The notes below the pieces were generated by a model that was not told the origin of the DNA, did no database searches, and saw only the letters and a program-made list of their open reading frames with translations. Both the position numbers and the translations under genes were made by a program. A DNA stretch of 64,000 bases from Parcubacteria group bacterium Licking1014_17. GTDB lineage: Bacteria; Patescibacteriota; Minisyncoccia; 2-02-FULL-40-12; IGHO2-01-FULL-4-A. The DNA lies in contig VMGJ01000002.1 of assembly GCA_007376485.1 (NCBI GenBank), positions 15,134-79,133 of the forward strand, in the 5' to 3' direction. Shown piece by piece: positions 25,918 to 50,178 of the stretch (position 1 is its first letter; each line of letters opens with the position of its first letter).

Positions 25918-25952
25918 GCGCCGAGGCGATAAACTCGCAACATACAATTTGG
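25918..25952. repeat. Left copy of a 35-bp imperfect direct repeat flanking the toxin-antitoxin module.
   Basis: CGCCGAGGCGATAAACTCGCAACATACAATTTGGC here, against CGCCGAGGCAACAAACTCACAACATACAACTTGGC at 26793..26827. Confidence 0.6.
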
Positions 25953-26079
25953 CATGTGCACTGAGCTTGTCGAAGTGCTCCACACTGTGGACGACGTTAG
26001 AACCAGAACACAGAAATCCACGGGGTATATTCACATACCAAACATAGCTTTTTGATTTTGTCCTACCCTTTCACAACCA

Positions 26080-26406
26080 CTATTTTTCCGATAGAGCCTT
26101 CCCGAGTTCAGGAATATCTTTTTGTATAGTCTTCCAAACTTCTTCAAGGTCAACTTCAAAATATCCATGAATAAGCATATTTCTCATCCCTATTATTTTA
26201 TCCCAAGGTACATGCTTATTGCTCTCGTGAAATCCAGAAGAAAGACGATTTGATGCCTCACCTACAATTTCAATTTCGCGTATTACAGCGTCCTGAAGTA
26301 ATTTGTTCTTCAGAAATTCATCACGATTCACATCACCTATGTGTTCAACTATTGTTTTTATCGCATCTTTGATGTGTTGTACAAAAACAGAATCACTTTT
26401 TTCCAT
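26080..26406 (-). CDS. hepT: HepT-like HEPN (DUF86) toxin.
   Basis: Carries the RNMLIHGY motif (R-x4-HxY) and overlaps the mntA gene by 14 nt. Confidence 0.8.
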   Translation of the reverse strand: MEKSDSVFVQHIKDAIKTIVEHIGDVNRDEFLKNKLLQDAVIREIEIVGEASNRLSSGFHESNKHVPWDKIIGMRNMLIHGYFEVDLEEVWKTIQKDIPELGKALSEK

Positions 26407-26680
26407 AGAATATCTTTAAATCATGCATTACATTATCCTTAATATACGGGCTTAAAAATCCTTCTGTTAATAGGTCCACCTCAATCCCCAGTTTCTCTGA
26501 TAATTCATTCTTAAACCCTGCAAAATCAAATAAACCCAAAGGTTCTTTGAGTTTAACAAGTATATCAATGTCACTATCTTCATTTGCTTCTCCTCTGGAG
26601 TGTGAACCGAAAAGTCCGGCATAAACAACGCCATATTTGTCCAGAATAGGCTCTATTTTTTGAACATTAACTCTATCCAT
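26393..26680 (-). CDS. mntA: MntA-like minimal nucleotidyltransferase antitoxin.
   Basis: Has GLFGSHSRGEANEDSDIDILV (the GS-x9-DxD motif) and is 95 aa long. Confidence 0.85.
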   Translation of the reverse strand: MDRVNVQKIEPILDKYGVVYAGLFGSHSRGEANEDSDIDILVKLKEPLGLFDFAGFKNELSEKLGIEVDLLTEGFLSPYIKDNVMHDLKIFYGKK

Positions 26681-26699
26681 ATTGTTAATGTATCACATA

Positions 26700-27295
26700 A
26701 GAAAGCATGAATCCAGCCCATGGGCTACTCACTCCCCGCCACGGTGGGGTCGGCAGGCAAATTCTATACAATCTGCCTGCCGAGGCGCGAAGCGCCGAGG
26801 CAACAAACTCACAACATACAACTTGGCTCCCTCTGTTTGAAAAAATACGAACTTTTTTCCGCGAAAATCTTGATGCTGAATTCTAACGCTCGGGCGAGGC
26901 GGAATTCCCCCCACACCCCCCTTCCGCCTCGCTCATGATCATGATTGAGTTCTGTTGGAGGTGGAAGCGCGCCGGCCAATAACAAAAAGGATATGGCGGG
27001 TCTTTGGCGTGGCGGCACCCGCTCGGCGATTCTCGGAGAGTTATGTGGTCATTTTACCGCGTAGTGGCGCTACACGTCCACTCTCCTTCGTCGCCTCGCG
27101 TGTCAGGCGTCTTTGCACATTTTATCTGTGCTTGCCCCGCCCCCCTGTGCGCGCACAAGAGAGCCGCCTGCTGGCGGCTCTAAGCTCCCCTAATTTGTTA
27201 TTATCCACAGCTAGTTGACCTCAAACCAAAAATTTGCTAGTCTTATTAGGTAACAAAATTGATAAAACCTCGCCGTATTTAATACAAGGTTTTGT
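26700..27295 (+). ncRNA. GC-rich (roughly 58% GC) structured non-coding block, possibly an unclassified ncRNA. Its strand is uncertain.
   Basis: There is no credible ORF on either strand. Many perfect hairpins are present (GGCAGGC...GCCTGCC; GCGAGGCGGAA...TTCCGCCTCGC; GAGCCGCC-tgct-GGCGGCTC). It ends at a strong terminator hairpin at 27297..27343. Confidence 0.3.
26793..26827. repeat. Right copy of the 35-bp direct repeat flanking the toxin-antitoxin module.
   Basis: See the 25918..25952 entry. Confidence 0.6.
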
Positions 27296-27296
27296 A

Positions 27297-27343
27297 CCAA
27301 AAGAGCGTGTCCTAGGTCTAGGGCCCGCTCTTTTGGTTTTTAC
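27297..27343 (+). terminator. Rho-independent terminator.
   Basis: ACCAAAAGAGCG...CGCTCTTTTGGT 12-bp stem followed by TTTTT. Confidence 0.6.
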
Positions 27344-28014
27344 CAGATTTTGTAGAGATATTTCTTATCAATTACCTTTCGTAAATCCTTGTTTTTGCCG
27401 GTAAAATAATCTTTGATCGCTCCGCTTGCAAGATCAGATAATTGCATGGCATTCACATATTCTGAATTTACATGGGTGATGTGCTTGATTCGTTCGATCG
27501 TTTTGGTGTTTACTCGCCCAAACAAGTATTCATCAAAACTTTTGAAATAATCGCCGTTGTACATTCTCCTGTCGGCTCGATCAATCACCACTTCCACTCC
27601 GGTAAGATTTTGCTTATTTGTGGCAAATAGTACGAGTTTTGATAAATTGTAATCGTCAAAAATGTTATGCAGTTTTGCGTGTCCGGCGGTTGCAAATTTG
27701 CCTTTGTAGGTTCGCTTGTCTACGAGGCGGTAATAAATCGGAATTTGCAACTTATTTACGATACCGAGCATGTCTTTGTACATGGTCAAAGGAATAATCG
27801 TGGACTTGATCTCGCTTCTAAATCCGTATTTTTGCCTGATCTCCATAATCTCATTTTCTACCGCGAACAATTTCACAGAATCCAAACAAATCGCGGTAAG
27901 GATATAAAACAGACTTGCTCCAGTCGGGATTTTATTTCCGTCCGGATCTGTTTCAAATGGCTTTCCTGGATCGCCTGACTCATCTATAAAAATGTAATGC
28001 TGTATATTGGCCAT
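27340..28014 (-). CDS. DUF3800 family protein.
   Basis: The N-terminal YIFIDESGDPG motif is typical of DUF3800. The protein is 224 aa long and is the last gene of a four-gene operon. Confidence 0.7.
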   Translation of the reverse strand: MANIQHYIFIDESGDPGKPFETDPDGNKIPTGASLFYILTAICLDSVKLFAVENEIMEIRQKYGFRSEIKSTIIPLTMYKDMLGIVNKLQIPIYYRLVDKRTYKGKFATAGHAKLHNIFDDYNLSKLVLFATNKQNLTGVEVVIDRADRRMYNGDYFKSFDEYLFGRVNTKTIERIKHITHVNSEYVNAMQLSDLASGAIKDYFTGKNKDLRKVIDKKYLYKIW

Positions 28015-28019
28015 AAATC

Positions 28020-28229
28020 CTAGTGTTTTGTTGCGTCTACTAATTTATAGGATGATTTTGCCTTCGGTGTAGGCGGCAACGTTTTACCTTTAACCCCTGT
28101 AATTTCCTCACCTGTTTTACCCCCTCTCGGCCCAATAATTTCATACTGGCCAGATCGAGGCACTGCTTGTCCCGGTTTTAGTTTAGGCTTCATCATTCTC
28201 TTGATTATTTTTACAATATTTTTCTGCAA
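28020..28229 (-). CDS. Small basic hypothetical protein of 69 aa.
   Basis: Sits with small gaps on both sides inside the operon. Sequence reads GQYEIIGPRGGKTGEEITGVKGKTLPPTP. Confidence 0.4.
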   Translation of the reverse strand: MQKNIVKIIKRMMKPKLKPGQAVPRSGQYEIIGPRGGKTGEEITGVKGKTLPPTPKAKSSYKLVDATKH

Positions 28230-28256
28230 AATCTGACAGTTGTTTAGTCAAAGATT

Positions 28257-28802
28257 TCATATCATCAGCGATCTCGCCACCAAACGCCATTCTTCCATGG
28301 ATTCAATCTCTTTATTACCTACTTCCGATTTATTTCTTATATATAAAGCCCCGTGGCGTAGGCCAATATTTTGAGAGAATGCTTGCACCTGAGGATTGAT
28401 TAGAGCGTGGCTACTCGTATATATAACCGGGAATTCTTTACTTTCAGAAATTTGGATAAAAACAAAGTTCTTTTCGACTTTATCCTCTTTATCAATATGC
28501 TTGTGCTTCTCAATTTTACACTGAATTTTTTGGTTGCTTTTATTATTTAAAAAGCTACTGATTTGATCATGGGTAAAAGTGCCAAAATTAGCATCTGAGA
28601 GTCCCGCACGCTTACCGTCTTTATCTACTCCAATAATAACAATGCCACCACCGCTCTCATTGGCCATGGCAAATATTGTTTTTATGATTTCTAACTTCTT
28701 CGCTATATCAGTCCAGGGGATGTCTCCCTTATATTCCAGATAAACTTCCTCTTGGTCATGGTAGAGTGCTTCGAGTAACTCATTTGGTATTTCGTCTATC
28801 AT
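28257..28802 (-). CDS. AlbA_2 (Schlafen-like divergent AAA) domain protein, stand-alone N-terminal domain.
   Basis: EYKGDIPWTDIAKKLEIIKTIFAMANESGGGIVIIGVDKDGKRAG matches the AlbA_2 core. It overlaps the upstream phosphatase gene by 4 nt. Confidence 0.6.
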   Translation of the reverse strand: MIDEIPNELLEALYHDQEEVYLEYKGDIPWTDIAKKLEIIKTIFAMANESGGGIVIIGVDKDGKRAGLSDANFGTFTHDQISSFLNNKSNQKIQCKIEKHKHIDKEDKVEKNFVFIQISESKEFPVIYTSSHALINPQVQAFSQNIGLRHGALYIRNKSEVGNKEIESMEEWRLVARSLMI

Positions 28803-29383
28803 GGTCGTATTGCTTCTAATTTATATTCCCAGCCAGGCTGCCAAGAGTGAGTCTTACGCCAATCTTCGGCAAAAGCCTGTTGCCATGTTTTATTCTTAAG
28901 CAAAACATCGAGAGCAAGTTGGGGTGCTTTATGAGCTACAATGGCAACCGATTTACCATTATAGTTCTGTTTCAAGAATTCTAAAAAATCGGAAAGTCTA
29001 GTTTTAACGTCTTCGTAGCTTTCGCCATTAGGAAACCTCTTCATGATCATGTCCTCTTGCATCGGCTCTACAATAGATGACGGCTTGGCATTATAATCGC
29101 CGTAGTTACATTCTCTAAGCCTTGCATCTGGAATAATTGGCATAATGCCTCCCCATGTTAGCTTGGCTGAATTATAAGCTCTTTTTAGATCAGAACAGAA
29201 AACAACATCAAATTTCTTGTCTTTAGTTTGACTTTTGAGGTCTTTTGATTGTTGAATTCCTAGTTCAGATAGCTCGACATCATACCAACCGGATGAAACG
29301 TTTTTCTGATTATCGGTGGTTGTACCATGAACAAAGTAAGTAATCTTTACAGACATATTTATTGGGATTCTATCAAAAATCAA
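28799..29383 (-). CDS. Histidine phosphatase (phosphoglycerate mutase-like) family protein.
   Basis: Has the Y(F)VHGTTTDN catalytic His motif, CSDLKRA, and IVAHKAPQ. Confidence 0.7.
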   Translation of the reverse strand: MIFDRIPINMSVKITYFVHGTTTDNQKNVSSGWYDVELSELGIQQSKDLKSQTKDKKFDVVFCSDLKRAYNSAKLTWGGIMPIIPDARLRECNYGDYNAKPSSIVEPMQEDMIMKRFPNGESYEDVKTRLSDFLEFLKQNYNGKSVAIVAHKAPQLALDVLLKNKTWQQAFAEDWRKTHSWQPGWEYKLEAIRP

Positions 29384-29409
29384 GGGAAATTTAAAGTTTT
29401 CTGGAAATA

Positions 29410-29476
29410 GGACTCGAACCAGAAAAGGTGAATAAAATAAAGGAAAGCGATTTTTGACAGGAATTGGACTGGAACC
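29410..29476 (-). repeat. Two degenerate copies of a tRNA 3' end (T-arm/acceptor), candidate att-site remnants.
   Basis: GGACTCGAACCAGAA at 29410 and GGACTGGAACCAAGA at 29466, against the genuine T-arm/acceptor at 29583..29593 of the adjacent tRNA. Confidence 0.45.
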
Positions 29477-29505
29477 AAGAGCTGATTGCGCCAGAACACG
29501 AAACT

Positions 29506-29536
29506 AAAAAGTGCCAATAATATCGGCACTTTTTAG
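29506..29536 (-). terminator. Rho-independent terminator immediately 3' of the tRNA-Asn gene, with bidirectional shape.
   Basis: AAAAAGTGCCAATA-at-ATCGGCACTTTTT. Confidence 0.55.
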
Positions 29537-29571
29537 GACGCATATCGGTCGCTTGGAACCTGACCTAAATG

Positions 29572-29908
29572 CTCCGGCGCCTGGACTCGAACCAGGAACC
29601 ATCTCCTTACACATAATCCATTACTTTCGTAGTGGGGTGGACTATATCTTACCCGTGTCCCGTTGTTAGCGGATTTAGGGTTTTCGGTATCTAGTCTCTA
29701 CGGTGTCCCCTCGATTCGGGCTCGCCCTGGGCGAGCTTGTCCTGAGCTCGTCGAAGGACGAAGCGAGTCGAAGGGTTCCCACGGTATTACCCATTCGCCT
29801 ATTGGCAAATTAGGGCTTCACCGTTATCCCGAAAAGTTTCAACCTAAGTTTCCTTAGGAAGCTGCGATAAATTCACAGGGAGCCGCTCTACCATTGAGCT
29901 ACGCCGGA
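29572..29908 (-). tRNA. tRNA-Asn(GUU) interrupted by a roughly 265-nt group I intron in the anticodon loop.
   Basis: The 5' exon (29908..29875) reads TCCGGCG-TA-GCTC-AATGGTA-GAGC-G-GCTCC-CTGT. The 3' exon (29609..29572) reads TAA-GGAGA-TGGTT-CCTGG-TTCGAGT-CCAGG-CGCCGGA-G. Joined, they give the anticodon loop CUGUUAA with a perfect 7-bp acceptor stem. The intervening 265 nt ends in G, follows an exon U, and contains the group I P7 motif GUAGAGACUAGA...AUAGUCC. Confidence 0.6.
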
Positions 29909-29940
29909 ATCTTTTTTATTTAAGGTGCTGCCCATTTCGC

Positions 29941-29986
29941 CCCTCGACCAGCTCGGGGCAAGCCCTTCGACAGGTTCAGGGCAAGC
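29941..29986. repeat. Two tandem units of the dispersed 23-24-nt repeat family.
   Basis: CCCTCGACCAGCTCGGGGCAAGC followed by CCTTCGACAGGTTCAGGGCAAGC. The same family occurs at about 25947, 29700-29770 (inverted, inside the intron) and 49532-49656. Confidence 0.6.
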
Positions 29987-30480
29987 TACGTCGGAATATT
30001 CAGTTTTACATTCAAAGTTTAGCAGATTAAAAACAGAGACACAAGAAGGCAAAATCGTGCGGACTTGACAAAAAAGTAGATATAAGCAAGTATTGAGTCA
30101 GCTGTTTTACAATTCAGCGGAAAGGAGCATGAATTGAGCACAAGGGATTTTCTCGACAGAGAAAAATATAAAGCACCGCTAACTCTCAACCTTTGGATTT
30201 TCTGTGCCAAGGCCGGCCGGTTTTTGAAATACGGGGTGCCGTTGAACTTCTTGCTTAGTTGCCAGCGGGTATGCAAATGGATTTACAGACACACCGGCTT
30301 GTGGCCGAGGCATGAAAGCTTTGGTTTTAAGTGGCGCCAACGCCTCACACGGCTCAAAAAAAAATTGGCCGACGAGGAATACATCCTACAGATTACCAAC
30401 CAGCACGTCCGCGGAGTTGGACTTGGTCGGTATCTAAATCTGAAGTGGATAAGACGACGTTTTTCCAGAATTACCTCCCA

Positions 30481-31524
30481 CTAGTTGGAATGGATAGCCA
30501 AAAGAGACCGAAAAACGGTGTCCGTGTGAGAAATCTTTTCCGTCCACATTTCTATCAGCGCTTTCTCCGAAGGGAAAGGCGCTTTTGTTTTTTTGTATTC
30601 TGGTGTTTTTTCATAATCCAGTTTCAGCTGAGGGTAGATTTTATTCCTATATAATGCCAAAATATTCTCTGCCGCTCCTTGATACTGAGTTTCAATGTGC
30701 CGCAAAACGCCTTCGGAAATTTTATTCCCCTTCTTAATCTCTTCTTCCACATAATTTGACCAGAAGTCTGGAATTTTTATTCCCATGATTACGAAGGCCA
30801 TCTTACTCCAATGGCTGGCTAAATTTTTCTTGTCCAAGCCGATATTATCATCGGCATGGATTTTCAACCCCATCAGTTCCAGCATATTTTTCTGCTCAAG
30901 CCCTATTATTATTCTGCAAACCTCCCCACTGAAGGCCGCGAATTTGCCGTATTTAATATTTGCCATTTTACCCTTTTCTATCTCTTCGGCTATATTATTA
31001 AATTTTCTGGCGATCCAATTGGCGTTGTTAGAGTTAGTAAAATCCACGGCTACCACAACCGGATTTTCGCCGTTTATCTTTAAGATTACATCAACACCAT
31101 TCTCTAAATCATCATATTCCGAGGCCGGATATGCCTCAATGTTGCCTTTAAACCATTCATTCATCAGCCCTATAAATAACGCCTCGGATATTTTGGAATA
31201 CAGATAATTTTTAAGCTCTTCCTCTTTTTCTTTTTCGCCAAATTTCTCGGCGAGGGTTTCCTTAAGCGCTTCAACCCGCTGAATATCCTGTAGTTTCTCC
31301 CGCTCTAAATCTCCCGAATCTTCGGGGTTAACGACTATTTTGGGACGATTATTTTCTAAACCACCGGGGCCAAGAACATATTTTTCGTAAAATTTCCCCT
31401 GCAATTCACTAAGCAAATGTTTGCCTTTTTTATAAGCCATTTCCTCTAAAGAAACATCGCTCTCTTCCGGAGATTTTTCTAACAGCGTAATAACAGTATC
31501 AGAACTTGCAAATTTTTCTCTCAT
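30481..31524 (-). CDS. Hypothetical 347-aa protein, fourth gene of the dnaG/rpoD operon.
   Basis: Begins 8 nt after the rpoD stop. It is acidic and lysine-rich with no motif. Confidence 0.5.
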   Translation of the reverse strand: MREKFASSDTVITLLEKSPEESDVSLEEMAYKKGKHLLSELQGKFYEKYVLGPGGLENNRPKIVVNPEDSGDLEREKLQDIQRVEALKETLAEKFGEKEKEEELKNYLYSKISEALFIGLMNEWFKGNIEAYPASEYDDLENGVDVILKINGENPVVVAVDFTNSNNANWIARKFNNIAEEIEKGKMANIKYGKFAAFSGEVCRIIIGLEQKNMLELMGLKIHADDNIGLDKKNLASHWSKMAFVIMGIKIPDFWSNYVEEEIKKGNKISEGVLRHIETQYQGAAENILALYRNKIYPQLKLDYEKTPEYKKTKAPFPSEKALIEMWTEKISHTDTVFRSLLAIHSN

Positions 31525-31531
31525 ATAATCT

Positions 31532-32758
31532 TTAATATCCTTTTAATTTTTCAGATTTATGATGCTGGCGGATTTTTTCGAGAGCTTTGGCTTCGATTTG
31601 GCGGATTCTTTCGCGGGTGACGCCGAAAACTTTGCCCACTTCTTCCAGAGTATGAGTCACGCCGTCGGCAAGCCCGAAACGCATTTCAAGAATTTTTTGT
31701 TCGCGCGGCGAGAGGTCACTGATGATTTCTTTTAAGTGGTCGCGTAGGATTCTCCTGCCGGCGGTCATTTCGGGCGAAACCGAATCTTCGTCCGCCACAA
31801 AATCGGCCAAGAGCGAATCATCGCCGTCATCCCCTACCGGCGCCTCAAGCGATACGGTGTCCTGCGAGATTTTCATGATGTGCCGGATTTTATCAATATC
31901 TATATTCATCTCGGCGGCAACTTCCTCCGGCAGCGGCTCGCGCCCCAAATCCTGTATCAGCCGGCGCACCACTTGCTGGTATTTGTTTATGGTTTCAATC
32001 ATATGCACCGGAATGCGGATAGTCCGCGCCTGGTCGGCGAGGGCGCGCGTAATCCCCTGCCTGATCCACCAAGTGGCGTAAGTTGAAAATTTAAATCCCT
32101 TTTTGTAATCGAATTTCTCGACGGCGCGGGAAAGACCGATATTTCCCTCCTGAATCAAATCAAGCAGGGTTAGATTCGGGGAACGCCCGACGTATTTTTT
32201 GGCGATAGACACCACAAGGCGGAGGTTCGACAGCATCAGTTTCTGTCTTGCCGATTCGTCTTTCTTTTCAATGCGCTTGGCAAGTTCCGCTTCTTCATCG
32301 CCGGTCAGTAGCGGATATTTCCCGATTTCGCGAAGATACATTTGCACGGAATCCGAACCCGCCTCCAGCTGTTCGGTTTCCAGTTTTTTCTTTTCCTCGT
32401 GTTCCTTGCCCATTCCTTCGGAAAATATCTTCCCGGTATCAAGGATGTTGATGTTGGCGGCTTTCAGCCTTTCATAAAGATATTCAATGCCCTTGACATC
32501 GTCTTCTACATTGGGAAAAGTGTGCAAAATCTCGTATTCCGTGATAAAACCGCGGTGCCTGCCTTTGTCTATCAGGCGTTCAATCATTTCTTCGGCAACA
32601 ACCTGCCTTTTGTGCCTTTTTGCGGGCGCGTTTTTCATCGCCGCCTTTGAAGCGGTTTTTTTTGATATTTTTTTCTTCCGAGCCGGCTTCCTTGTTTTCC
32701 GGGCTTTCCTTGCCGTTCCCGCTTTCTTTTTTTTCTTGGGGCGTGATTTTTTTGCCAT
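31532..32758 (-). CDS. rpoD: Primary sigma factor RpoD with an N-terminal Lys/Arg-rich extension.
   Basis: Contains regions 1.2 to 4, including [27 protein letters not shown] and [21 protein letters not shown]. Confidence 0.9.
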
Positions 32759-32796
32759 AATTTGTAATTAATAAAAAATAAAAACTCTAAAAAATA

Positions 32797-34611
32797 TTAT
32801 TGGACCAGTTCTTTGGTGAGAGAAGAAAATTCCGCCAGTAATTTAGCCAGTGAAGTTTTGTCGCATGCCTTCTCGGCTCCTTTAATATCATACTCGAGAG
32901 AACCGAGTTTTGCCATAATCCCCTTTCTCTTTATGTGGCAAAGGATATTTTTGAATTCCTCCTCAAGGTGCTCTATGTTCCTGTCCTTCCACAATTCGTC
33001 GGATTTCAGATAAGCAACTTCGATATTCATCGAAATCGGGCTGAACACCGGGTTTCCGGTCAAAGTTTTTACGGCCCAATCGGGCCTATCTTTTTTTACG
33101 GACTCGTCGCCCGCCATAATTTTCAGATGTTCGGCAATGCTTTTGAACGTAGAGGATAAAAACGGAATCGCGGACTCGGGTATTGAGCCGGCTAAGCATG
33201 GCTCTTTTATCAGCAAAGAAATCAAATCCTCTTCAGCCGGGCTTAAAGCGCCGGTAACTTCATGGGCGGTAACGGCTTCCCCCTTCGCCTCCTCGGGCGT
33301 ATAGCTTCTTCGGGCCTTCACATTTGCCAGCTCGCTGTAAATAAAATCATCTTTTACTTTAAGCGCCAAAGCGGCTTCAGCCACCCAGTGAGACTGCTCG
33401 ATTTTATTCGCGATTGACGCCACTAATGGCAATATTTTTTGGGCGAACAACTTTTTCCCCAGAGCAGTTGAAGTATCAAAAACCTTTTTTGATAAATCAA
33501 AAAAGTACGCCATGAACGGCACCGATTTTGAAGCAATCTCCGTCCATCTATCTCCGTATTTTCTTACGTAGTCGGCAGGGTCCTTAATACCTTCTTCGTC
33601 TATTGGTATAACGCCCACGTTTAACCCATGTGACAAGGCAAGGTCAACGCCGCGTTCAAGAGCTATGGCTCCGGCGCTATCGGCATCAAAGCACAAATCA
33701 AGATTGTCGGTGTATCTCTTTATAAGACGAAGCTGGCCATCGGTAAAGGCGGTTCCGGATGATGCGACGGAGTTATCCGCACCCGCCTGATGGGACATAA
33801 TGACATCCATATTACCCTCAACCACCACACAGCGCCCTTTCTGCCTTATCGCCATTTTAGCGTGGTTTAATCCGTAAAGAATTCTGCCTTTGTCATAAAT
33901 CGGTGTCTGTGGGCTGTTCACATATTTCGCCGGGGTTTCCCCCGCCGCTGTGTCTTTACTACCGGTTTCAAAAACTCTGCCGGCAAAACCGACTACTTGG
34001 CTGTTTAGGTCGAAAATCGGAAACATTATCCGCGAGCGGAAACGGTCGTAGTCTTCCCCGCTATTTTCCCTTCTTACGCTCAAACCGGCATCCCGGATTT
34101 CATTACTGTTGAATTTCCTGCCAAGAAAATCTTTAAGCGAACGCCAGCTGTCGGGTGCGAAACCGAGCCGGAATTTTTCTATGGACTCACCGGTAAGTCC
34201 CCTGCCGTAAAGATATTCAAGCGCGCGCTTGCCTGTGGCTGATTCATGAAGCTGTTTTTCAAAAAACTTTGCTGAAAGCTCGCAGATTTCGTAAAGGCGC
34301 GATTTAAGATTCTGGAATTCCGGACGGACGGGTTCAAGCTCCACTCCGGCGCGCGCCGCCAGAATTCGCAGAGCTTCGGGAAATTCCACGCCTTCAATCT
34401 GCCTTATAAAACCAAAAATATCCCCGCCCAGCCCGCAACCGAAGCAATGCCAAATCTGTCTTTCGGGAGAAACAAAAAATGAGCCAGTTTTCTCGTTATG
34501 AAACGGGCACCGGGCTTTGTAATTAATCCCCGCTTTCTGAAGTTTGACATAGCCGCCAATAAGCTCAACTATATCAACCCTGTCTTTGATTTTAGAAATA
34601 TTGTCTTCCAC
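32797..34611 (-). CDS. dnaG: DNA primase DnaG.
   Basis: Has the CHC2 zinc finger (CPFHNEKTGSFFVSPERQIWHCFGCGLGGD), a TOPRIM domain (VVVEGNMDV...DADSAG), and a C-terminal helicase-binding region. Confidence 0.9.
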   Translation of the reverse strand: MEDNISKIKDRVDIVELIGGYVKLQKAGINYKARCPFHNEKTGSFFVSPERQIWHCFGCGLGGDIFGFIRQIEGVEFPEALRILAARAGVELEPVRPEFQNLKSRLYEICELSAKFFEKQLHESATGKRALEYLYGRGLTGESIEKFRLGFAPDSWRSLKDFLGRKFNSNEIRDAGLSVRRENSGEDYDRFRSRIMFPIFDLNSQVVGFAGRVFETGSKDTAAGETPAKYVNSPQTPIYDKGRILYGLNHAKMAIRQKGRCVVVEGNMDVIMSHQAGADNSVASSGTAFTDGQLRLIKRYTDNLDLCFDADSAGAIALERGVDLALSHGLNVGVIPIDEEGIKDPADYVRKYGDRWTEIASKSVPFMAYFFDLSKKVFDTSTALGKKLFAQKILPLVASIANKIEQSHWVAEAALALKVKDDFIYSELANVKARRSYTPEEAKGEAVTAHEVTGALSPAEEDLISLLIKEPCLAGSIPESAIPFLSSTFKSIAEHLKIMAGDESVKKDRPDWAVKTLTGNPVFSPISMNIEVAYLKSDELWKDRNIEHLEEEFKNILCHIKRKGIMAKLGSLEYDIKGAEKACDKTSLAKLLAEFSSLTKELVQ

Positions 34612-34717
34612 GCTGGAGGGATAGTTTCTGAATTATAACACAGGCTGTCAAGGGATTGCAAAAAGGAAAAGAGTTCCCAGGCATCGGGGAACTCTTTAAA
34701 AACTCCACACAAAAGAC

Positions 34718-41148: not shown

Positions 41149-41254
41149 AAATTCAATATACCAAAAAAATCCCGGTATTCATATGATACTTTTTATAAAA
41201 AATAAAAAGAGCCGACCCGGGCTGTCGGCTCTCAAATCCTTTATTCTGATGCTG

Positions 41255-41610: not shown

Positions 41611-41634
41611 GATCGTCAAGTAAAGTCAATAGTT

Positions 41635-42225
41635 CTAAAATATTGTGTCTTCGTCAGCCCTTTTGTAAGAAAATATCTCTTTTTTTGAAAACCAATGACT
41701 GATTTCTCTTTTAGCTTCGGGAATAGAACCGGATGCGTGGACTATATTCCTGACTGTCCTTTTATTTTTGTTAGCAAGCGCTGGCGAATCAACGGAAAAA
41801 TCACCCCTTATGGTGCCCAAATCGGCGTTCGCCGGAATAGTTGAACCCACTATTTTTCTGCTCATTTCCACGGCATGAAGCCCTTCAAAAACCATAGCTA
41901 CAACCGGTCCAGAAGATAAAAACTCAATATTCCACTTATGGATAATTTCTCCGATTTTATAAGGATTATCGCTCCCCATTTCCTTTACTGGGTCCTTGCC
42001 ATATTTTTTGAAACTCTCAAGCGTTTTATTGCCCATTCCTTCCAGTTGTTCCTTCGTCGGCAAATAATGTTTGGCAATATGCGCGGGCGTGGGCTTGACC
42101 AATTTTAAGCCAACAAGCTTCAACCCTCTTTTTTCAAACCGCTGGATTATCTCCCCCACAATACCCCTTTGGACCGCGTCGGGTTTCGCCAAAATAAGTG
42201 TCTGCTCTTTCAATAAATTGCTCAT
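41635..42225 (-). CDS. ndk: Nucleoside diphosphate kinase, with insertions.
   Basis: EQTLILAKPDAVQRGIVGEIIQRFEKRGLKLVGLK and NIVHASGS (active-site His). Confidence 0.85.
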   Translation of the reverse strand: MSNLLKEQTLILAKPDAVQRGIVGEIIQRFEKRGLKLVGLKLVKPTPAHIAKHYLPTKEQLEGMGNKTLESFKKYGKDPVKEMGSDNPYKIGEIIHKWNIEFLSSGPVVAMVFEGLHAVEMSRKIVGSTIPANADLGTIRGDFSVDSPALANKNKRTVRNIVHASGSIPEAKREISHWFSKKEIFSYKRADEDTIF

Positions 42226-42230
42226 AAAAA

Positions 42231-43124: not shown

Positions 43125-44685
43125 TTTCAGGAACCGGTGGTTTCCCGCGCCAGCTTAAAAATAAAACAACGACAGCCGCCAGATAAAAAACAAAAACCGC
43201 CTGCCACGGAATTTTGACCGTTACATTGCCGCCCGGAATGGAACCGCCGATTTTTATTACTTTTATGACAAACTCCGACACCACCCAAGATAAACTGCCC
43301 AATATCTTTCCCAAAAAAGGAATTATTATGCCTAAAACGCCGGTGGCGAAACCCATTATCATTATTACGGGTATCAATGGCAGTATAATGGCGTTGACGG
43401 GCACGGAAATCAGAGAAAAACTTCCGAAACTGAATATGATTAAAGGCAGCACTGCCATTTGCGCCGAAATTGTCATGGCTAAAGTTTCGCGAAAATTGTA
43501 AACCGAGGGAGCCCAAAGAAAATATTTTTCAATCAGCGGACTGATGTAAACCAGCCCGAGCGTCGCGAGAAACGAAAGCTGAAAGCCGACGTCATAGCGC
43601 AAAATCAGCGGTTGGATAAGCACCATAACCGCCGCGGCGCCGATAATCGCCGTGCCCGGACTGCTTAGTCTGCCGTTCCGCCGTGCTATGAGGACGAGGA
43701 CGCCCATTATCGCCGCCCGGATTACCGAGGCGGCGGCTCCGACAAATATTGAAAAAACTGCGATGCCGATTATGGAAAATAACATCGCTCTCTTCCGCCC
43801 CAACACCGCCAAAAATATGAAAAGGAAAAATTCGGCGATAATAGTGATGTTGTATCCGGACACAGCCAGAATATGGGAAGTGCCGGTGCGCTTGAAATCG
43901 TTGGTCAGCGTTTCATTCTCAAAAACTCTGCCGCCTAAAAGCGTTCCGCCGACAAAAGAGGCGTTGGGCTCGGAGATCGAACGGGTAATTGAGTTTTCAA
44001 AAACATTGCGAACGGCGTAAATCGGCTTCAGAACGGATATTTTCACTTTGTCGGGAAAAGGGATTCCCGCCTGGTTGTTTATCACGGATATTTCGGGAAA
44101 ACTCATGGTTGTATAAATGCCGTCCTTCGCCAGATAAGATTTGTAATCAAACCCCTCAATAAAACCCGGCAGAAGTGGCACGCCATCCACGGATATGGTC
44201 TGCCCGAATTTATATTCCGGATAAGTATCCGATATGACGAGAACTTTCTCGTTCAATGAAATAGCGTGGTTACCGCTTATCAGTTGTCTGGCGCCGACAA
44301 TTATATTCCGCTTGCCGTTGTGAACACGCGTCGGTTCAGCCACATAACCTAAAATTGTTATCGTAACTTTCGGTTTTCCGCTTGTCTGTTTAACCTCCGC
44401 AAGCGACGCCGCTATTTCGGAAAGTCCGCGCATGCTGTAGCTGACTGATTGAAAACGCCAAATTCCCATAACCGCCACGACAAGTGCGAAACCGGCGACT
44501 AAGGGAATCAATTTTTTATCTTTCAACAGCGGTATCTTGCGCCAACTTAAAGCAACCAGAAAAACCCCCAGAGAAAAAAGGACAAACATAACATTTGCCG
44601 GCACCGAAAAAAAAGACGCTATAAAAACGCCTAAGACAAATGATAAGGATAAAACAATAAATACACGCGACGGATGCATAATCAA
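43117..44685 (-). CDS. comEC: ComEC/Rec2 competence membrane channel (DUF4131 plus competence domain).
   Basis: Polytopic 522-aa protein with an N-terminal OB-like DUF4131 and a competence-domain helix bundle. Confidence 0.75.
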   Translation of the reverse strand: MIMHPSRVFIVLSLSFVLGVFIASFFSVPANVMFVLFSLGVFLVALSWRKIPLLKDKKLIPLVAGFALVVAVMGIWRFQSVSYSMRGLSEIAASLAEVKQTSGKPKVTITILGYVAEPTRVHNGKRNIIVGARQLISGNHAISLNEKVLVISDTYPEYKFGQTISVDGVPLLPGFIEGFDYKSYLAKDGIYTTMSFPEISVINNQAGIPFPDKVKISVLKPIYAVRNVFENSITRSISEPNASFVGGTLLGGRVFENETLTNDFKRTGTSHILAVSGYNITIIAEFFLFIFLAVLGRKRAMLFSIIGIAVFSIFVGAAASVIRAAIMGVLVLIARRNGRLSSPGTAIIGAAAVMVLIQPLILRYDVGFQLSFLATLGLVYISPLIEKYFLWAPSVYNFRETLAMTISAQMAVLPLIIFSFGSFSLISVPVNAIILPLIPVIMIMGFATGVLGIIIPFLGKILGSLSWVVSEFVIKVIKIGGSIPGGNVTVKIPWQAVFVFYLAAVVVLFLSWRGKPPVPENE

Positions 44686-45356
44686 CTTACCGCACTGATT
44701 TCCTTCAAAACTTTTTCAAAAACATTGACGGCTACGACCGCCTGGTTGTGCTTCAAACTGAAACCGGCATCATGAACGATTAAATTTCTAAGTTTATGGG
44801 CGTCCCAGAGTTCCTGCAAACTGACCAAATTACCCGGCTTGATTAAAATAAGCCGTTCACCCATAGTTTCTCCCTGATAACCGGCGGCTTTAAGCGCATC
44901 ATCAACAAATTTATCCGCCTCAATGACGGCAATTTTCCATTCCGCTTCGTTGTATGACTGGGCTTTTGCTTTTATCGCTTCCCAACTGCCCTGTTTCAGG
45001 GTTGTTTGCATGATGGCGGGCGCGCCATCGCTTCCCGCGGGCGGCGTTTGAGTAGTTCTCGTTGCTTCGCCCATGGCTTTATTAATGGCGCGGATTCTGA
45101 AGAAAAGATATACCAGAACGAATATGAAGAAAATAATAAAAGCAATCGCGACTTTTTTCGCCGTGGCGATGAGGTCAGGGTCAGTTAAATCTAAGTGGAA
45201 GAAATTGCCGATGTTCCTGAAAAAATTTATTATCGGCTCAAAAATATTCGGGAGATTGATATCGGTTCTCAACCCGCTAAAATTCGGACCCCGCGGAGCC
45301 GAGGATTGTCCCAGCGTGAATACCCATGATGGAATTGTTGGCTGTGGTAAAAGCAT
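44682..45356 (-). CDS. Hypothetical membrane protein of 224 aa.
   Basis: One transmembrane helix and a soluble C-terminal domain. It overlaps the comEC start by 4 nt. Confidence 0.4.
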   Translation of the reverse strand: MLLPQPTIPSWVFTLGQSSAPRGPNFSGLRTDINLPNIFEPIINFFRNIGNFFHLDLTDPDLIATAKKVAIAFIIFFIFVLVYLFFRIRAINKAMGEATRTTQTPPAGSDGAPAIMQTTLKQGSWEAIKAKAQSYNEAEWKIAVIEADKFVDDALKAAGYQGETMGERLILIKPGNLVSLQELWDAHKLRNLIVHDAGFSLKHNQAVVAVNVFEKVLKEISAVS

Positions 45357-45365
45357 ATTTATAAT

Positions 45366-46769
45366 TTAACGTGATAATTCATAAGCATGGGCAACGCGCA
45401 AAATGGTTGCTTCGTCAAAATGCCTGCCCATTATTTGAAAACCGACCGGCAATTCTTTGCCGTCAATCAGTACAGTCCCGCAGGGCACGGAAATCGCCGG
45501 GATGCCGACAAGATTCGCCTGAACCGTAAACATATCAGCCATGTAAGCCGACAGCGGATCCGTCAGCTCCCCTATTTTCGGCGCAACCATCGGCGCGACC
45601 GGACCGACAATAACGTCAAAATTTTTATAAACTTTTTCAAAATCTTTCCGTAAGAGAGTCCTGACTTTCTGCGCCTTTAAATAATAGGCGTCGTAGTAGC
45701 CGGCGGACAACGTATAGGTGCCGATAATTACCCGGCGCCGCACTTCCGGACCCAAAAATTCGGCGCGGGTATGCAAATAGGAATCAATGTAAGAATCGCC
45801 ATCCGATGAAACCTTGCCGTATTTGATGCCGTCGTAGCGCGCCAAGTTTGAAGAAACTTCTGACGGAACAAGGATATAATAAGCCGCCAAAGCGTATTCA
45901 GCCGTTGGGATATTTACATAATCAACATAAATGCCGAGCTTACCCAGCACGCTTATCGCTTTTTCAACGGAAATTTTAATATCCGGGCTGATGCCTTCGC
46001 CGAAATACTCTTTCGGAACCGCGGCTCGCAAACCCTTAACGGGCTTATCCAATTCTTTGACAAAATCCGGAACTTCCGCCGGCGAGCTTGTAGAATCCAT
46101 CGGATCGCGCCCGGAAATGACATTCAATACTATTGCCGCGTCCTCGACAGTTTTTGTTATCGGACCGATTTGGTCAAAACCGGAAGCCATGGCAATTAAG
46201 CCGTGGCGCGACACTCTGCCATAAGTCGGCTTTAATCCGACAACGCCGCACAATGACGCCGGCATTCTGATTGAGCCCCCAGTGTCGGAGCCCAGAGCAA
46301 AAACCGCCATGTCCGCCGCTACTGCCGCCACAGAGCCGCATGAAGAACCACCGGCGATGCGCTTGTCGTCGTAGGGATTCAGGGTCGGACCAAAAGCTGA
46401 ATTTTCGCCGGTCGTACCCATGGCAAATTCATCCAAATTTGTTTTGCCAAGAATAACGGCCCCCGCGGCTTTTAACTTTGACACAGCCGTAGCGTCGTAA
46501 GCCGCTGTATAATTTGAAAGGATTTTAGAGCCGGCAGTGCAATGCTTTCCTTCCACAAGAATGGAATCTTTAACAGCGCAGGGAATACCGGCAAGCGCGC
46601 CGCCTGATTTTTCCGCTTTTTCATCACCTTTATAAACCTCCAGATAGGCGTTTAATTTTTTATCGTGAAGTTCAATTTCGCGCAAAAATCCCTGCCTGAT
46701 TTCCTCGGCACTCGCCTCGCCGTTCTCTATCATGTGCAGGACTTTTTTAATTGTCAGGTCGCTGTTCAT
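45366..46769 (-). CDS. gatA: Glu-tRNA(Gln) amidotransferase subunit A.
   Basis: Has the amidase signature (GGSSCGSVAAVAA, the Ser-cisSer-Lys triad region). The start was set at the ATG at 46769 (MNSDLTIKKVLHMIENGE). Confidence 0.9.
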   Translation of the reverse strand: MNSDLTIKKVLHMIENGEASAEEIRQGFLREIELHDKKLNAYLEVYKGDEKAEKSGGALAGIPCAVKDSILVEGKHCTAGSKILSNYTAAYDATAVSKLKAAGAVILGKTNLDEFAMGTTGENSAFGPTLNPYDDKRIAGGSSCGSVAAVAADMAVFALGSDTGGSIRMPASLCGVVGLKPTYGRVSRHGLIAMASGFDQIGPITKTVEDAAIVLNVISGRDPMDSTSSPAEVPDFVKELDKPVKGLRAAVPKEYFGEGISPDIKISVEKAISVLGKLGIYVDYVNIPTAEYALAAYYILVPSEVSSNLARYDGIKYGKVSSDGDSYIDSYLHTRAEFLGPEVRRRVIIGTYTLSAGYYDAYYLKAQKVRTLLRKDFEKVYKNFDVIVGPVAPMVAPKIGELTDPLSAYMADMFTVQANLVGIPAISVPCGTVLIDGKELPVGFQIMGRHFDEATILRVAHAYELSR

Positions 46770-46790
46770 AAATACTAAGTAAAATATTAA

Positions 46791-46930
46791 TTGAGAAATA
46801 CGTTTTTGAGCAGTACAGCGAGCCAGTTTTGCTTGGTCCCGCACCGGTATGGTGCGGGAAAACTGGCGAGGTATAAGTGAGGGCTTCGCTGGAAAGCCCG
46901 AACATCTGCGAAAAAATGTATTTCTCAATG
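46791..46930 (-). ncRNA. Copy A of a three-copy, roughly 140-nt structured RNA element, lying between gatC and gatA.
   Basis: Core GAGCAGTACAGCGAGCCAGTTTTGCTTGGTCCC.CACC...GGTG.GGGAAAACTGGCGAGGTATAAG...CGCTGGAAA...CATCTGCGAAA. The closing stem is TTGAGAAATAC/GTATTTCTCAA. It starts 12 nt after the gatC stop. Confidence 0.55.
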
Positions 46931-46941
46931 CTAAAGAACCC

Positions 46942-47247
46942 CTACTTTGCTTCTAAAATTGACTTCACTTTTACGAAATTCTCTTTTCGGCGCGGCGCCT
47001 GTCCGACAAGTTTTTCGGTATTTTCTAATGACGGCTCTATGGAATTCGTATCATCGCGGAAAACATTTTCCATGCCCGTTACCTGCGCCGTCGGCTCCAC
47101 ACCCGCCAAATCAAGTTCACCTATTTTATTGACGTAATCCAAAATCGGCTCCAACTCTCCGGTCAGTTTTTCCCGCTCTTTCGCGGTCAATTTTATCCGC
47201 GCCAAATGAGCGACATATTCAACTTCTTTTTCGGTAATACGAGACAT
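46942..47247 (-). CDS. gatC: Asp/Glu-tRNA amidotransferase subunit C.
   Basis: 101 aa, ...ITEKEVEYVAHLARIKLTAKEREKLTGEL... Confidence 0.85.
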   Translation of the reverse strand: MSRITEKEVEYVAHLARIKLTAKEREKLTGELEPILDYVNKIGELDLAGVEPTAQVTGMENVFRDDTNSIEPSLENTEKLVGQAPRRKENFVKVKSILEAK

Positions 47248-47377
47248 AAGTTAAAAATAGCACAAAAAATACAAAACCTAAAGATATTTGACGTTACTCA
47301 TTAATAATGTTATTATTAACACAGCCCACAAAGATTGTTGATTCCTTGACAATTTGGTTTAAGAAACGAGGTGTAAC

Positions 47378-47791
47378 ATGACACGCATTCTTTTTTCTGT
47401 TTTGGGGGTTTACATCCTGTTGTTATCTGTTTCCTGTGGTCCTACCCCACCGACCGTCCTGATTACAACATCACAGACGGAGACAAAGGTAAATCTAGAT
47501 GCTGCAATCACGATCGGTAATCACACGTGGCTGCCTCTTAATTTAGAGCAGGGCAAGCCCTTTGGGGAGCCGGCACGCCCTATTAACCACGTTCTGGACA
47601 TTCTCAATATTCTTAAAGCATTTGAGGATGCCCACCCGGAGTTGGAGACCACCGGGTGGTTCATTGAGAAGGAACAGCGTGCAAGTGGGACTATGAGGAA
47701 TATATTTGGTATCTGGGTTGATCATAGACCCAAACAGGCTTGCATATGCGACTGCAATTGCGGGCCCACACCAAAACTCGAAAAAGAGTAG
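47378..47791 (+). CDS. Hypothetical lipoprotein-like secreted protein.
   Basis: GAGGTG ribosome-binding site, a signal peptide with LSVSC, and a C-terminal CICDCNC. Confidence 0.5.
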   Translation: MTRILFSVLGVYILLLSVSCGPTPPTVLITTSQTETKVNLDAAITIGNHTWLPLNLEQGKPFGEPARPINHVLDILNILKAFEDAHPELETTGWFIEKEQRASGTMRNIFGIWVDHRPKQACICDCNCGPTPKLEKE

Positions 47792-47876
47792 GAGATAACG
47801 ACAAATCGGTTAGGGATTGCGGTATTTTGATAAGAAGCCACCATCCCCGGCCGATTTTTTTATTGATACAGCTCAT

Positions 47877-48030
47877 AGCCGAAGCCAAACTGCTTTTGAG
47901 CAGTACAGCGAGCCAGTTTTGCTTGGTCCCCCACCGGCACGCCGGTGGGGGAAAACTGGCGAGGTATAAGCGGAGGTTTTCGCTGGAAAAACCGGAGCAT
48001 CTGCGAAAGGGCAGTTTGACTTTGGCGCCA
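47877..48030 (-). ncRNA. Copy B of the structured RNA element, immediately 3' of ligA.
   Basis: Same core as copy A. The closing stem GCCAAACTGC/GCAGTTTG(A)C has different sequence but is still complementary. It abuts the ligA stop codon at 48031. Confidence 0.55.
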
Positions 48031-50178
48031 TTATTTTACCATCCTCAAAAACTCCCCTTCCGAGATTATTTTCACTCCCAGTTTTTTGGCTTTATCAAAT
48101 TTTGAGCCCGGTTCGTGGCCGGCGACGACATAGCTGGTTTCCTTGGATATCGACGATAAGGCGTCGCCGCCATTTTCGCGGACGAGTTTTTCGGCATCCT
48201 CGCGAGTAATGGTATCAAGCGAACCAGTGAAGATGAACGACAGTCCTTTCAATTTCTGCGATTTTTGCGATTTGCTTTGCGCCAGCACTTTCACCCCGGC
48301 TTTTTTGAATTTTTCCAAAAGTTTTTTGCTGTATGGTTTTTTGAACCACTTATAAATTTCTTCAGCCGTAACATCACCGATGTCTTTTATTGAATTCAAT
48401 TCTCCGGCTTCGGCACCGGCGATTTTTTCGATTGTGCCGAACTGGCGCGCCAAATCAACAGCCGTTTCAATGCCTACGTGCGGAATCCCCAAACTGAAAA
48501 CAAATCTATCCAGCGTCACGGTTTTGTGCGACTGAATGGCGCCAATTGTATTTTCGGCGGATTTGTCGGCAAATCTTTCCAGGTTCATCAGGTCTTCTTT
48601 TTTTAATTTATACAAATCAGTAACATCCCTGATTAAGCCGGCATCAACAAGCTGGTCAATTATTTTCGGACCGACACCGTCTATATTCATCGCTCCTTTG
48701 GAAACAAAATGATACATATATTCCCTTTTTCTCGCTGGACAGTTCTCGTTGACGCATTTGTGCGCGGCATAACCCTCTTCCCTGACAATCGCGCCCTCGC
48801 AGGCGGGACATTTTTTGGGAAAATGAAATTCTTTTTCCTTGCCAGTTCTCAATTCCTTCAAAACTTTTTTTATGTCCGGAATGACATCGCCCGCCCTTCC
48901 GACAACCACCGTATCGCCTATTTTCACTCCGAGCCGTTTTATTTCATCTTCGTTGTGGAGGGTGGCGCGCGATATCGTTGTCCCGCCGATTTCCACCGGC
49001 TCAAGCACCGCTACCGGCGTGAGCGTTCCGGTACGCCCGACGCTGACAATGATGTCATTCAATTTTGTCGTTGATTCGCGTGGAGAAAACTTGTAAGCAA
49101 CAATTGCTCTCGGTGCTTTGCCGATAATGCCCAGCTTTTTTGACATTTTATTGTCGTTGATTATTACAACCGTGCCGTCAATTTCATAAGACAGCTTTTC
49201 GCGGTGTTTTTCCCAGTAGTCGCGGAAACCGCCGACTTCGTCAATCGTGCGGCAATATTTATTGTTTGGATTGGTTTTAAAACCAAGCGCCTTGAGAATC
49301 AGATGCTCCTCTTCATGGGTTTCCTGCCCGAAATTTGTGAGCAACGAATACGCGTACGAATCAAGTTTGCGCGAAGCGGTCAGTTTGGGGTCAAGCTGTC
49401 TGATGGAACCGGCGGCAAGATTGCGAGGGTTTTTATAAGTTGCCTCTCCGGCTTTTTTCTGTTCGGCGTTCATGCGCTCAAATTCTTTTTTGCTCAAAAA
49501 AACCTCACCTCTCACAATAATTTCTTCCGGCAGCCCCTTCGACAAGCTCAGGGCAGGCTCCTTCGACAAGCTCAGGGCAGGCTCCTTCGACAAGCTCAGG
49601 GCAGGCTCCTTCGACAAGCTCAGGGCAGGCTCCTTCGACAAGCTCAGGGCAAGCCCTTTTTCCCCCATTTCCTTCAAAAATTCTTCTCTGCTATTCAACT
49701 TCAGCGGTATGGCTTCAACTGTTTTCAGGTTTTGAGTAACATTTTCACCGATAAAACCGTCGCCGCGGGTGGCGCCGACAGCCAAGCTCCCGTTTTTATA
49801 AATCAGCTCAATCGCTAAGCCGTCTATTTTTAATTCGCAGAAAAATCCGGAATCAATAGCGCGGCTATCCAATCTTTTTACGCGGTCTATCCAGTCGTTT
49901 AAATCATCTTTATTAAAAACATCATTGAAAGAAAGCATCCTTCCCGGATGGGTAAACTTTTCAAATTTATCCAACGGCTTGCCGGCAACGCGCTGGGTCG
50001 GCGAATCGGGGGTCACGATTTTTGGGAATTGCTGCTCTAAATCAAATAGTTCCTTTTTGAGCGAGTCCTCAACCGATTCTTCGATTATCGGCGCGTCCAA
50101 AACCAGCCGGTGATAACGGTATTTATTGATTAAAACCCTTAATTTTTCAGCCCTTTGAGCGGCTTCTTTTGTGGTCAT
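48031..50178 (-). CDS. ligA: NAD-dependent DNA ligase LigA, carrying an in-frame (EPALSLSK)x5 insertion.
   Basis: Has the KxDG adenylation motif region (ELKIDGLAIEL), the OB domain, a Zn finger (CPACEGAIVREEGYAAHKCVNENC), an HhH domain and a BRCT domain. The protein is 715 aa. Confidence 0.9.
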   Translation of the reverse strand: MTTKEAAQRAEKLRVLINKYRYHRLVLDAPIIEESVEDSLKKELFDLEQQFPKIVTPDSPTQRVAGKPLDKFEKFTHPGRMLSFNDVFNKDDLNDWIDRVKRLDSRAIDSGFFCELKIDGLAIELIYKNGSLAVGATRGDGFIGENVTQNLKTVEAIPLKLNSREEFLKEMGEKGLALSLSKEPALSLSKEPALSLSKEPALSLSKEPALSLSKGLPEEIIVRGEVFLSKKEFERMNAEQKKAGEATYKNPRNLAAGSIRQLDPKLTASRKLDSYAYSLLTNFGQETHEEEHLILKALGFKTNPNNKYCRTIDEVGGFRDYWEKHREKLSYEIDGTVVIINDNKMSKKLGIIGKAPRAIVAYKFSPRESTTKLNDIIVSVGRTGTLTPVAVLEPVEIGGTTISRATLHNEDEIKRLGVKIGDTVVVGRAGDVIPDIKKVLKELRTGKEKEFHFPKKCPACEGAIVREEGYAAHKCVNENCPARKREYMYHFVSKGAMNIDGVGPKIIDQLVDAGLIRDVTDLYKLKKEDLMNLERFADKSAENTIGAIQSHKTVTLDRFVFSLGIPHVGIETAVDLARQFGTIEKIAGAEAGELNSIKDIGDVTAEEIYKWFKKPYSKKLLEKFKKAGVKVLAQSKSQKSQKLKGLSFIFTGSLDTITREDAEKLVRENGGDALSSISKETSYVVAGHEPGSKFDKAKKLGVKIISEGEFLRMVK
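49532..49656. repeat. Five tandem copies of a 24-nt unit (CCTTCGACAAGCTCAGGGCAGGCT) inside ligA.
   Basis: The repeat is in frame. It encodes EPALSLSK x5 on the coding strand and SFDKLRAG x5 / LRQAQGRL x5 in the shadow frames. It belongs to the dispersed repeat family. Confidence 0.8.

Follow-up and report, generated by a model that had tools for sequence, protein, structure and literature searches.

A short hairpin DNA repeat in the Parcubacteria group bacterium Licking1014_17 belongs to a family present in many bacterial phyla and is probably a nuclease-associated selfish element

We analyzed a stretch of 64,000 nucleotides from contig VMGJ01000002.1 (positions 15,134 to 79,133, forward strand) of the Parcubacteria group bacterium Licking1014_17, hereinafter the window, with respect to a dispersed repeat of 23-24 nt that had been noticed when the sequence was read without database searches. 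That the family is real follows from two scans: a consensus 22-mer, with at most 3 mismatches allowed, matches the window 7 times compared to 0 matches in 100 dinucleotide-preserving shuffles, and a search for the core TCGACAAGCTC (at most 2 mismatches) combined with complementary flanks detects 9 units at four loci. The positions proposed in the sequence-only reading are correct to about 10 nt. The units and the genes that host them are as follows (TRF, Tandem Repeats Finder).

25957-25979, minus strand: single unit GCACT-TCGACAAGCTC-AGTGC, from the core and stem scan
29571-29908, minus strand: tRNA gene split by a 265-nt group I intron (29610-29874), from ARAGORN and RF00028
29712-29772, minus strand: about 54 extra nt in the P6 hairpin of the intron, comprising a full unit and the half-units CCCTTCGAC... 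and ...AGGACAAGCTCGCCC
29739-29759, minus strand: the full unit GTCCT-TCGACGAGCTC-AGGAC inside the P6 hairpin
29939-29984, plus strand: tandem pair of 23-nt units, from TRF, 30-75 nt upstream of the 5' end of the tRNA
48031-50178, minus strand: ligA, NAD-dependent DNA ligase of 715 aa, which hosts the array below; the rest of the protein is intact and retains the full set of Pfam domains
49529-49658, plus strand: array of 5.5 copies of the 24-nt unit GGCAGGCTCCTTCGACAAGCTCAG with 96% matches, from TRF, in ligA

The first unit, previously placed at about 25947, does exist, at the corrected position given here; it is located in the spacer separating the convergent genes typA (24042-25886, plus strand) and hepT (26080-26406, minus strand) and starts 4 nt past the end of a 36-nt direct repeat. 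The several copies claimed for the intron (29700-29770) reduce to one full unit accompanied by fragments of half-units. The pair next to the tRNA, in which the units read GCCCC-TCGACCAGCTC-GGGGC-AA and GCCCT-TCGACAGGTTC-AGGGC-AA, and the ligA array had both been recognized and are recovered by TRF, and the peptides FDKLRAG, LRQAQGRL and PELVEGR, described as shadow translations of the repeat, are indeed found in spurious open reading frames (ORFs). All local arrays in the window have periods of 23-24 nt, the unit variants differ among the four loci, and all window copies, none of which is accompanied by a nuclease gene, represent an untagged variant with the 3' flank CARGC.

The unit consists of a near-invariant loop, TTCGACARGCTCA, of 11-13 nt (written T-TCGACARGCTC-A), flanked in every window copy by 4-5 complementary bases that can form a stem of 4-5 bp. 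The stems of the window copies differ from one another by compensatory changes (GCCCT/AGGGC, GTCCT/AGGAC, GCCCC/GGGGC and GCACT/AGTGC). To avoid selection bias, units from foreign loci were gathered by the 13-nt loop only (at most 1 mismatch), leaving out the exact 19-mers that had been used to fetch the loci. All four stem pairs are Watson-Crick in 69 of the 169 distinct units, which represent 14 stem types, whereas 12 such units are expected by shuffling. Among the 147 independent non-seed units, 85.3% of the stem cells are paired compared to 60.8% after shuffling, double changes are found in 185 cells compared to 64, and the covariation score is 0.566 compared to 0.153, with all slid controls far lower. 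Because of this covariation, the family is a small hairpin in which the loop is near-invariant and the stem is free in sequence but paired. The predicted RNA fold of a single unit is weak (-7.4 kcal/mol, z -1.8), and the unit matches none of the Rfam covariance models, at gathering or E-value thresholds, in the window and in 18 foreign loci. Neither the DNA strings of the unit nor its shadow peptides appear in the literature that we searched, apart from chance matches to primers and peptides. Possible likenesses of the unit to terminal repeats of the Tn3 family, integron attC sites and tRNA T-loops were considered and set aside.

In ligA, the array is read on the minus strand in frame, as four copies of ALSLSKEP followed by ALSLSKG, between IPLKL and VRGEVF, and forms a 40-aa insert (approximately residues 175-214) located after the KxDG motif (117-120) and directly before motif III (VRGEVF). 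The insert is missing in all 119 nearest LigA homologs, in which the loop ranges from 0 to approximately 36 aa, and the HMMER alignment to Escherichia coli LigA (2OWO) breaks exactly at this point, with residues 164-214 of the query corresponding to a single residue. In the AlphaFold model (mean predicted local distance difference test, pLDDT, 84), values below 50 are confined to residues 177-210, and thus the insert is probably a 40-residue disordered loop at a surface site of variable length. The tripeptide KGL flanks the insert on both sides, and the insert measures exactly 120 nt. We infer from these features a single in-frame insertion followed by expansion through replication slippage, which would be recent given that four units are identical. 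Survival in frame is unsurprising considering that five of the six reading frames of the unit are open. The LigA encoded in the window shows 100% identity to that of Licking1014_17, a CPR (Candidate Phyla Radiation) bacterium. The LigA proteins of other CPR bacteria carry odd inserts in the same loop (homologs P0099 and P0042, PARNASHSDAGG and GGLSEARPEGGPFS) that are unrelated to this one and resemble translations of other repeat families; insertions may thus recur at this loop.

The ligA insertion is not an isolated case. A search with the ALSLSKEP array peptide yielded 3 protein matches only and was uninformative. Among the foreign loci we identified further units that lie in frame within host proteins confirmed by Pfam:

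L307, related CPR contig: unit in DnaG
L062: unit in AlaRS
L010, Saccharibacteria: unit in M17 aminopeptidase (PepA)
L059, Saccharibacteria: unit in PolX
L097: unit in a beta-CASP nuclease
L056: unit in an E2 linker
L074: five-unit array of 24-nt period in the tail of Obg
L070: unit in the tail of XseB

For DnaG, there is no basis for claiming a shared ancient insertion: the protein encoded in the window has a loop exactly as long as the one that bears the unit in L307, yet the two loops are dissimilar in sequence.

The intron offers a second case of apparent insertion. It scores 42.2 bits (E 3e-9) against RF00028, under the gathering cut-off of 50 bits, and depending on the splice register assigned by ARAGORN, the anticodon of the split tRNA is GTT (Asn) or TGT (Thr). 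The segment 29712-29772 is predicted to fold into one long hairpin (-39 kcal/mol, z -3.4). A metagenome scan with the conserved P7 region and the tRNA T-arm identified at least 120 homologous introns, of which the nearest (L300, L307, L302 and L320) align on either side of the repeat and have a P6 that is approximately 54 nt shorter, so that alignment identifies the unit and its fragments as an insertion into a peripheral loop of the intron. The possibility that the unit is part of the conserved intron core was rejected because it sits in the P6 extension that these homologs lack.

The same unit is found far beyond this genome. The exact 19-mer CCTTCGACAAGCTCAGGGC is present in the genomes of at least 120 species, compared to an estimated handful by chance, and the first 80 loci that contain it come from approximately 20 phyla or classes (as classified by hand from the titles), including the isolates Microbacterium, Microlunatus, Sphingomonas, Moraxella and Crenothrix. 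In these 80 loci, units carrying a 3' GAACGG tag are found in Alpha-, Beta- and Gammaproteobacteria, Dehalococcoidia and Campylobacterota; the tag is also present in a cyanobacterium. Units with the CARGC flank are found in Acidobacteriota, the Planctomycetes-Verrucomicrobia-Chlamydiae (PVC) and Fibrobacteres-Chlorobi-Bacteroidetes (FCB) groups, Saccharibacteria and Licking1014_17. Inverted doublets with a spacing of 25-60 nt are common among the GAACGG-tagged units, as are arrays whose periods are 24, 37, 54, 61 or 127 nt. Among finished replicons, 54 plasmids or chromids carry the 19-mer, mostly with no annotated feature beneath the match; Sphingobium chromids reach densities of up to 22 places per Mb, hardly any of which overlaps an annotated feature. 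None of the 5,426 E. coli genomes contains the unit. In 705 kb of mostly CPR contigs that carry a homologous intron, we found 3-4 unit loci compared to the 4 loci in the 64-kb window, an approximately 10-fold lower frequency; Licking1014_17 thus carries a lineage-specific bloom of units. A scan of a viral-contig collection produced 94 matches (L121-L214). These matches share recurrent head and portal genes and look like homologous head clusters of prophages or gene transfer agent (GTA)-like elements, so that they provide no evidence for phages as vectors of the units; the shared head-module ORF families are portal- and capsid-like by our own reading. In at least one of these contigs (L170), a doublet is located immediately upstream of an ORF encoding a protease-like protein.

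In other genomes the unit is closely tied to a gene for a small nuclease. We examined the ORFs located between neighboring units and collected homologs of the GIY-YIG protein with phmmer. In locus L094, a gene encoding a single-domain GIY-YIG protein of 99 aa has units on both sides, and in genomes with GAACGG-tagged units, the units bracket a gene of this kind, of approximately 95 codons and from a YhbQ/UPF0213-like clade, and often overlap its 3' end. Unit-derived peptides are found in the C-terminal extension of 95 of the best 120 among 1,927 homologs, which form a narrow clade (74-100% identity) and are not independent events, compared to 0 of 119 LigA controls. These extensions read ALRQAQGER... 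or VRPELVEGQ...HPSTSSGRTE, the latter corresponding to an inverted doublet, and therefore the unit or doublet overlaps the end of the gene. In eight independent DNA contexts, among them the complete genomes CP010554.1 and CP136572.1 and one isolate of the Neisseriaceae, the 10.5 kb lying no more than 500 nt from the gene contain 40 units and the 64.5 kb outside this range contain 3. These values correspond to 3.8 and 0.047 units per kb, an approximately 80-fold higher density next to the GIY-YIG gene. Clustering of the neighboring ORFs at 120 genome loci detected no recurrent transposase or nuclease family, because the dispersed copies swamp the few that are located beside the gene. The protein shares 39% identity with what we take to be the E. 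coli YhbQ sequence and 30% with the Ssn-like protein of locus L163, and in an alignment by eye it retains counterparts of the Y/Y/E catalytic residues that were mutated in SsnA. In four genomes (L337, L339, L344 and L350), the GIY-YIG gene (at 5001-5390 or 1979-2398) and its units reside inside a type I restriction-modification operon, between hsdM and hsdS or hsdR; the hsdR product of L344 also matches GIY-YIG.

Taken together, these observations make it probable that the repeats represent a pan-bacterial family of very short selfish hairpin DNA repeats that resemble repetitive extragenic palindromic (REP) sequences and are associated with a nuclease. The dispersed copies and local tandem arrays, the absence of the ligA insert from 119 homologs and of the P6 insert from the nearest introns, and the occurrence of the unit in many phyla with a tie to a nuclease gene all agree with the earlier suggestion of a short mobile or recombinogenic element. 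By analogy with the NTS/Ssn-related motif (SRM)-SsnA and REP-RAYT (TnpA-REP) systems, the nuclease would recognize the hairpin in single-stranded DNA (ssDNA) and nick beside it. In this scheme, the autonomous element would be the unit-gene-unit cassette, whereas units standing alone or in doublets would be non-autonomous copies of it, which would persist only in harmless sites such as spacers, the P6 loop of the intron and the LigA loop before motif III. The pattern is explained in this manner without invoking any cellular function. Several points weigh against this interpretation. In addition to the non-independence of the 95 proteins with unit-derived extensions, the gene association covers only GAACGG-tagged units, whereas the window copies belong to the CARGC variant, for which the 8-kb loci available have low power. 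The 64-kb window contains no gene for a GIY-YIG nuclease, RAYT or other transposase (a Pfam search of ten window ORFs likewise detected no transposase), and the units show neither an identifiable target-site duplication nor an excision footprint. Furthermore, the activity of the nuclease, its strand specificity and its role in the spread of copies are extrapolated from Ssn, and the identity of the loop across phyla could reflect a conserved host function.

This last possibility, namely that the hairpins are functional cis-elements (stabilizers in 3' untranslated regions, terminators, or binding sites for proteins or RNA) with an incidental association to the nuclease, is the alternative that fares best, and still we regard it as unlikely. 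Besides the near-invariant loop and covarying stems, it would account for the many copies in intergenic and intra-operon spacers, in the manner of REPs, and for the unit at 25957 between convergent genes. However, no T-run follows the window hairpins, the single-unit RNA fold is weak and no Rfam family corresponds to the unit. A host function of the loop is further disfavored because the contexts and orientations are scattered, with units in both orientations and located upstream of a tRNA, in an intron and in the coding loops of unrelated proteins, and because copy numbers differ widely between relatives, by approximately 10-fold among related CPR genomes.

Somewhat less probable in our estimation is that the unit is an ordinary member of the described REP superfamily, that is, either a GTAG-REP mobilized by RAYT or a CGTC-REP/SRM cut by Ssn (cd10448). 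The likeness to REPs, REPINs and BIMEs (bacterial interspersed mosaic elements) is considerable: these are hairpins of 20-40 nt, mainly intergenic, that form inverted doublets and clusters, include intragenic copies and flank the gene of the presumed mobilizing enzyme (REP-RAYT-REP; PMC3733652). Unlike the REPs, however, the units lack the GTAG tetranucleotide at their ends, where GAACGG or CARGC is found instead, and have a stem of only 4-5 bp with a conserved loop of 11-13 nt; the same unit is common to many phyla, whereas REPs are species-specific, and no RAYT-like cluster is among the recurrent neighbor families at the 120 loci. There is also a resemblance to the NTS, or Ssn-related motifs (CGTC-REPs, dRS3). 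There, the GIY-YIG nuclease SsnA cleaves ssDNA specifically beside a hairpin, with the loop identity not essential and the upstream flank crucial (Chenal et al. 2025, PMC11893778). In both cases, a short hairpin repeat with a flank that gives it an orientation occurs across many phyla and numbers hundreds of copies, and a repeat-gene-repeat arrangement surrounds a single-domain GIY-YIG gene of approximately 100 codons, with units within 500 nt of the gene in all eight contexts studied here and in 71% for ssnA (PMC11893778). The units nevertheless differ from the NTS in sequence, in the lack of the CGTC tag and in the combination of a large conserved loop with a variable stem, and the published SRM pattern HGTCWY...RNCYNB has 0 matches in the canonical units and on both strands of the window. 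A unit in locus L163 does lie approximately 350 nt from an Ssn-like gene, but that gene is directly flanked by other, CGTC-type repeats (of the GTCATCCCGG type). The protein associated with the units is also closer to YhbQ/UPF0213, assuming the YhbQ sequence used here, than to the Ssn-like protein of L163.

Two further comparisons concern the copies within genes. The Rickettsia palindromic elements (RPE) are said, in the work of Ogata et al. from 2000, to be selfish palindromes that reside in frame in surface loops of essential proteins. The units resemble them in that the ORF is kept intact by in-frame insertion, in LigA here and in DnaG, AlaRS, PepA, PolX and Obg elsewhere. They differ in length (21-27 nt compared to 100-150 bp), in sequence, in forming a perfect tandem array in ligA, and in a host range of many phyla as opposed to one genus. 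The Borg elements (Schoelmerich and colleagues, 2023) reportedly contain perfect tandem repeats that create disordered regions in frame. Like these, the ligA array is a perfect nucleotide repeat in an ORF, has a period divisible by 3 and is predicted to be disordered; unlike them, its unit belongs to a dispersed cross-phylum hairpin family and is not a locus-specific sequence. Two of the Rickettsia families, RPE-4 and RPE-6, are CGTC repeats (PMC3733652).

An origin of the ligA array, or even of the entire pattern, in faulty assembly or binning seems highly improbable: the source is a metagenome-assembled genome and repeats of this family are often found at contig ends, but the 130-nt array is in frame with no stop and lies within a continuous, conserved ligA, the unit variants differ among the four loci, and the family is also present in isolates and complete genomes. 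Least probable of all is the earlier proposal that the family is derived from, or specifically targets, the group I intron, for which one may cite the unit in P6, unit-like hairpins at P5 in two other introns (the P5 loop of L303 and a degenerate unit in L271), the similarity of the native P5 (GCCC/GGGT) and P6 (CCCTTCGA) stems to those of the unit and the small GIY-YIG ORFs adjoining some related introns, and against which stand the absence of the insert from the nearest homologs, the occurrence of unit-like hairpins in approximately 3 among at least 120 introns, at differing places and with a density no higher than in the whole window, the presence of units in at least 120 genomes with no group I intron in any of the 18 repeat-bearing foreign loci scanned with Rfam, and the distance of the intron-adjacent GIY-YIG ORFs, which have no units beside them, from the unit-associated clade. 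The intron loop is one more site where an extra hairpin does no harm.

Several other features of the region were observed. The intron-split tRNA gene is missed by ARAGORN with default settings, and a phage BLAST search with the tRNA and intron region gave no match. A 16-nt copy of the T-arm, GGACTCGAACCAG, is found at 29410-29425 (compare 29583-29598), approximately 150 nt past the 3' end of the tRNA, where it borders a set of accessory genes at 25.9-29.4 kb (His phosphatase, Schlafen/AlbA_2, DUF3800 and HepT/MntA), and may record a past integration event at this tRNA. The GIY-YIG ORFs next to several of the nearest introns (approximately 90 aa, of a different type, …KSGQGRKWL; 4446-4727 in L300, 2157-2432 in L302 and 3424-3765 in L320) may be intron-associated endonuclease genes, considering that the 5' tRNA exon fails to align in these contigs. 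The 36-nt direct repeat that precedes the first unit (25918-25953) has a second copy at 26792-26827 with 89% identity, and the two bracket the HepT/MntA toxin-antitoxin cassette (26080-26680), suggesting that the cassette was inserted or duplicated by recombination at this repeat. Downstream of the DUF3800 gene, a GC-rich, hairpin-rich non-coding stretch of 660 nt (26680-27340) matches nothing in Rfam at E <= 1; it may represent either a new RNA or the remnants of genes.

The preferred interpretation, a nuclease-associated selfish hairpin, can be extended, more tentatively and at somewhat less than even odds, to the proposal that the units constitute a third REP-enzyme system beside GTAG-REP/RAYT and CGTC-REP/Ssn, one in which a loop-specified hairpin, TTCGACARGCTCA, is paired with a YhbQ/UPF0213-like GIY-YIG nuclease in approximately twenty phyla or classes including CPR. 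If so, essential proteins would time and again acquire short peptides (ALSLSKG, PSTSSGQ, RPELVEG) in frame from this system, and the predicted candidate substrate of the nuclease, the unit of 21-27 nt, would be the first concrete substrate for the widespread YhbQ-type proteins. The link to GIY-YIG predicts a new sequence- or structure-specific ssDNA nuclease, which would be of practical interest in the same way as the Ssn family (2025). The units also account for very common junk hypothetical proteins in metagenomes (with the peptides FDKLRAG, LRQAQG, SLSKG, PELVEG and PSTSSGQ) and for many contig breaks, and their presence in LigA and other essential enzymes indicates that selfish hairpin repeats are tolerated in such proteins even in the tiny genomes of CPR bacteria.

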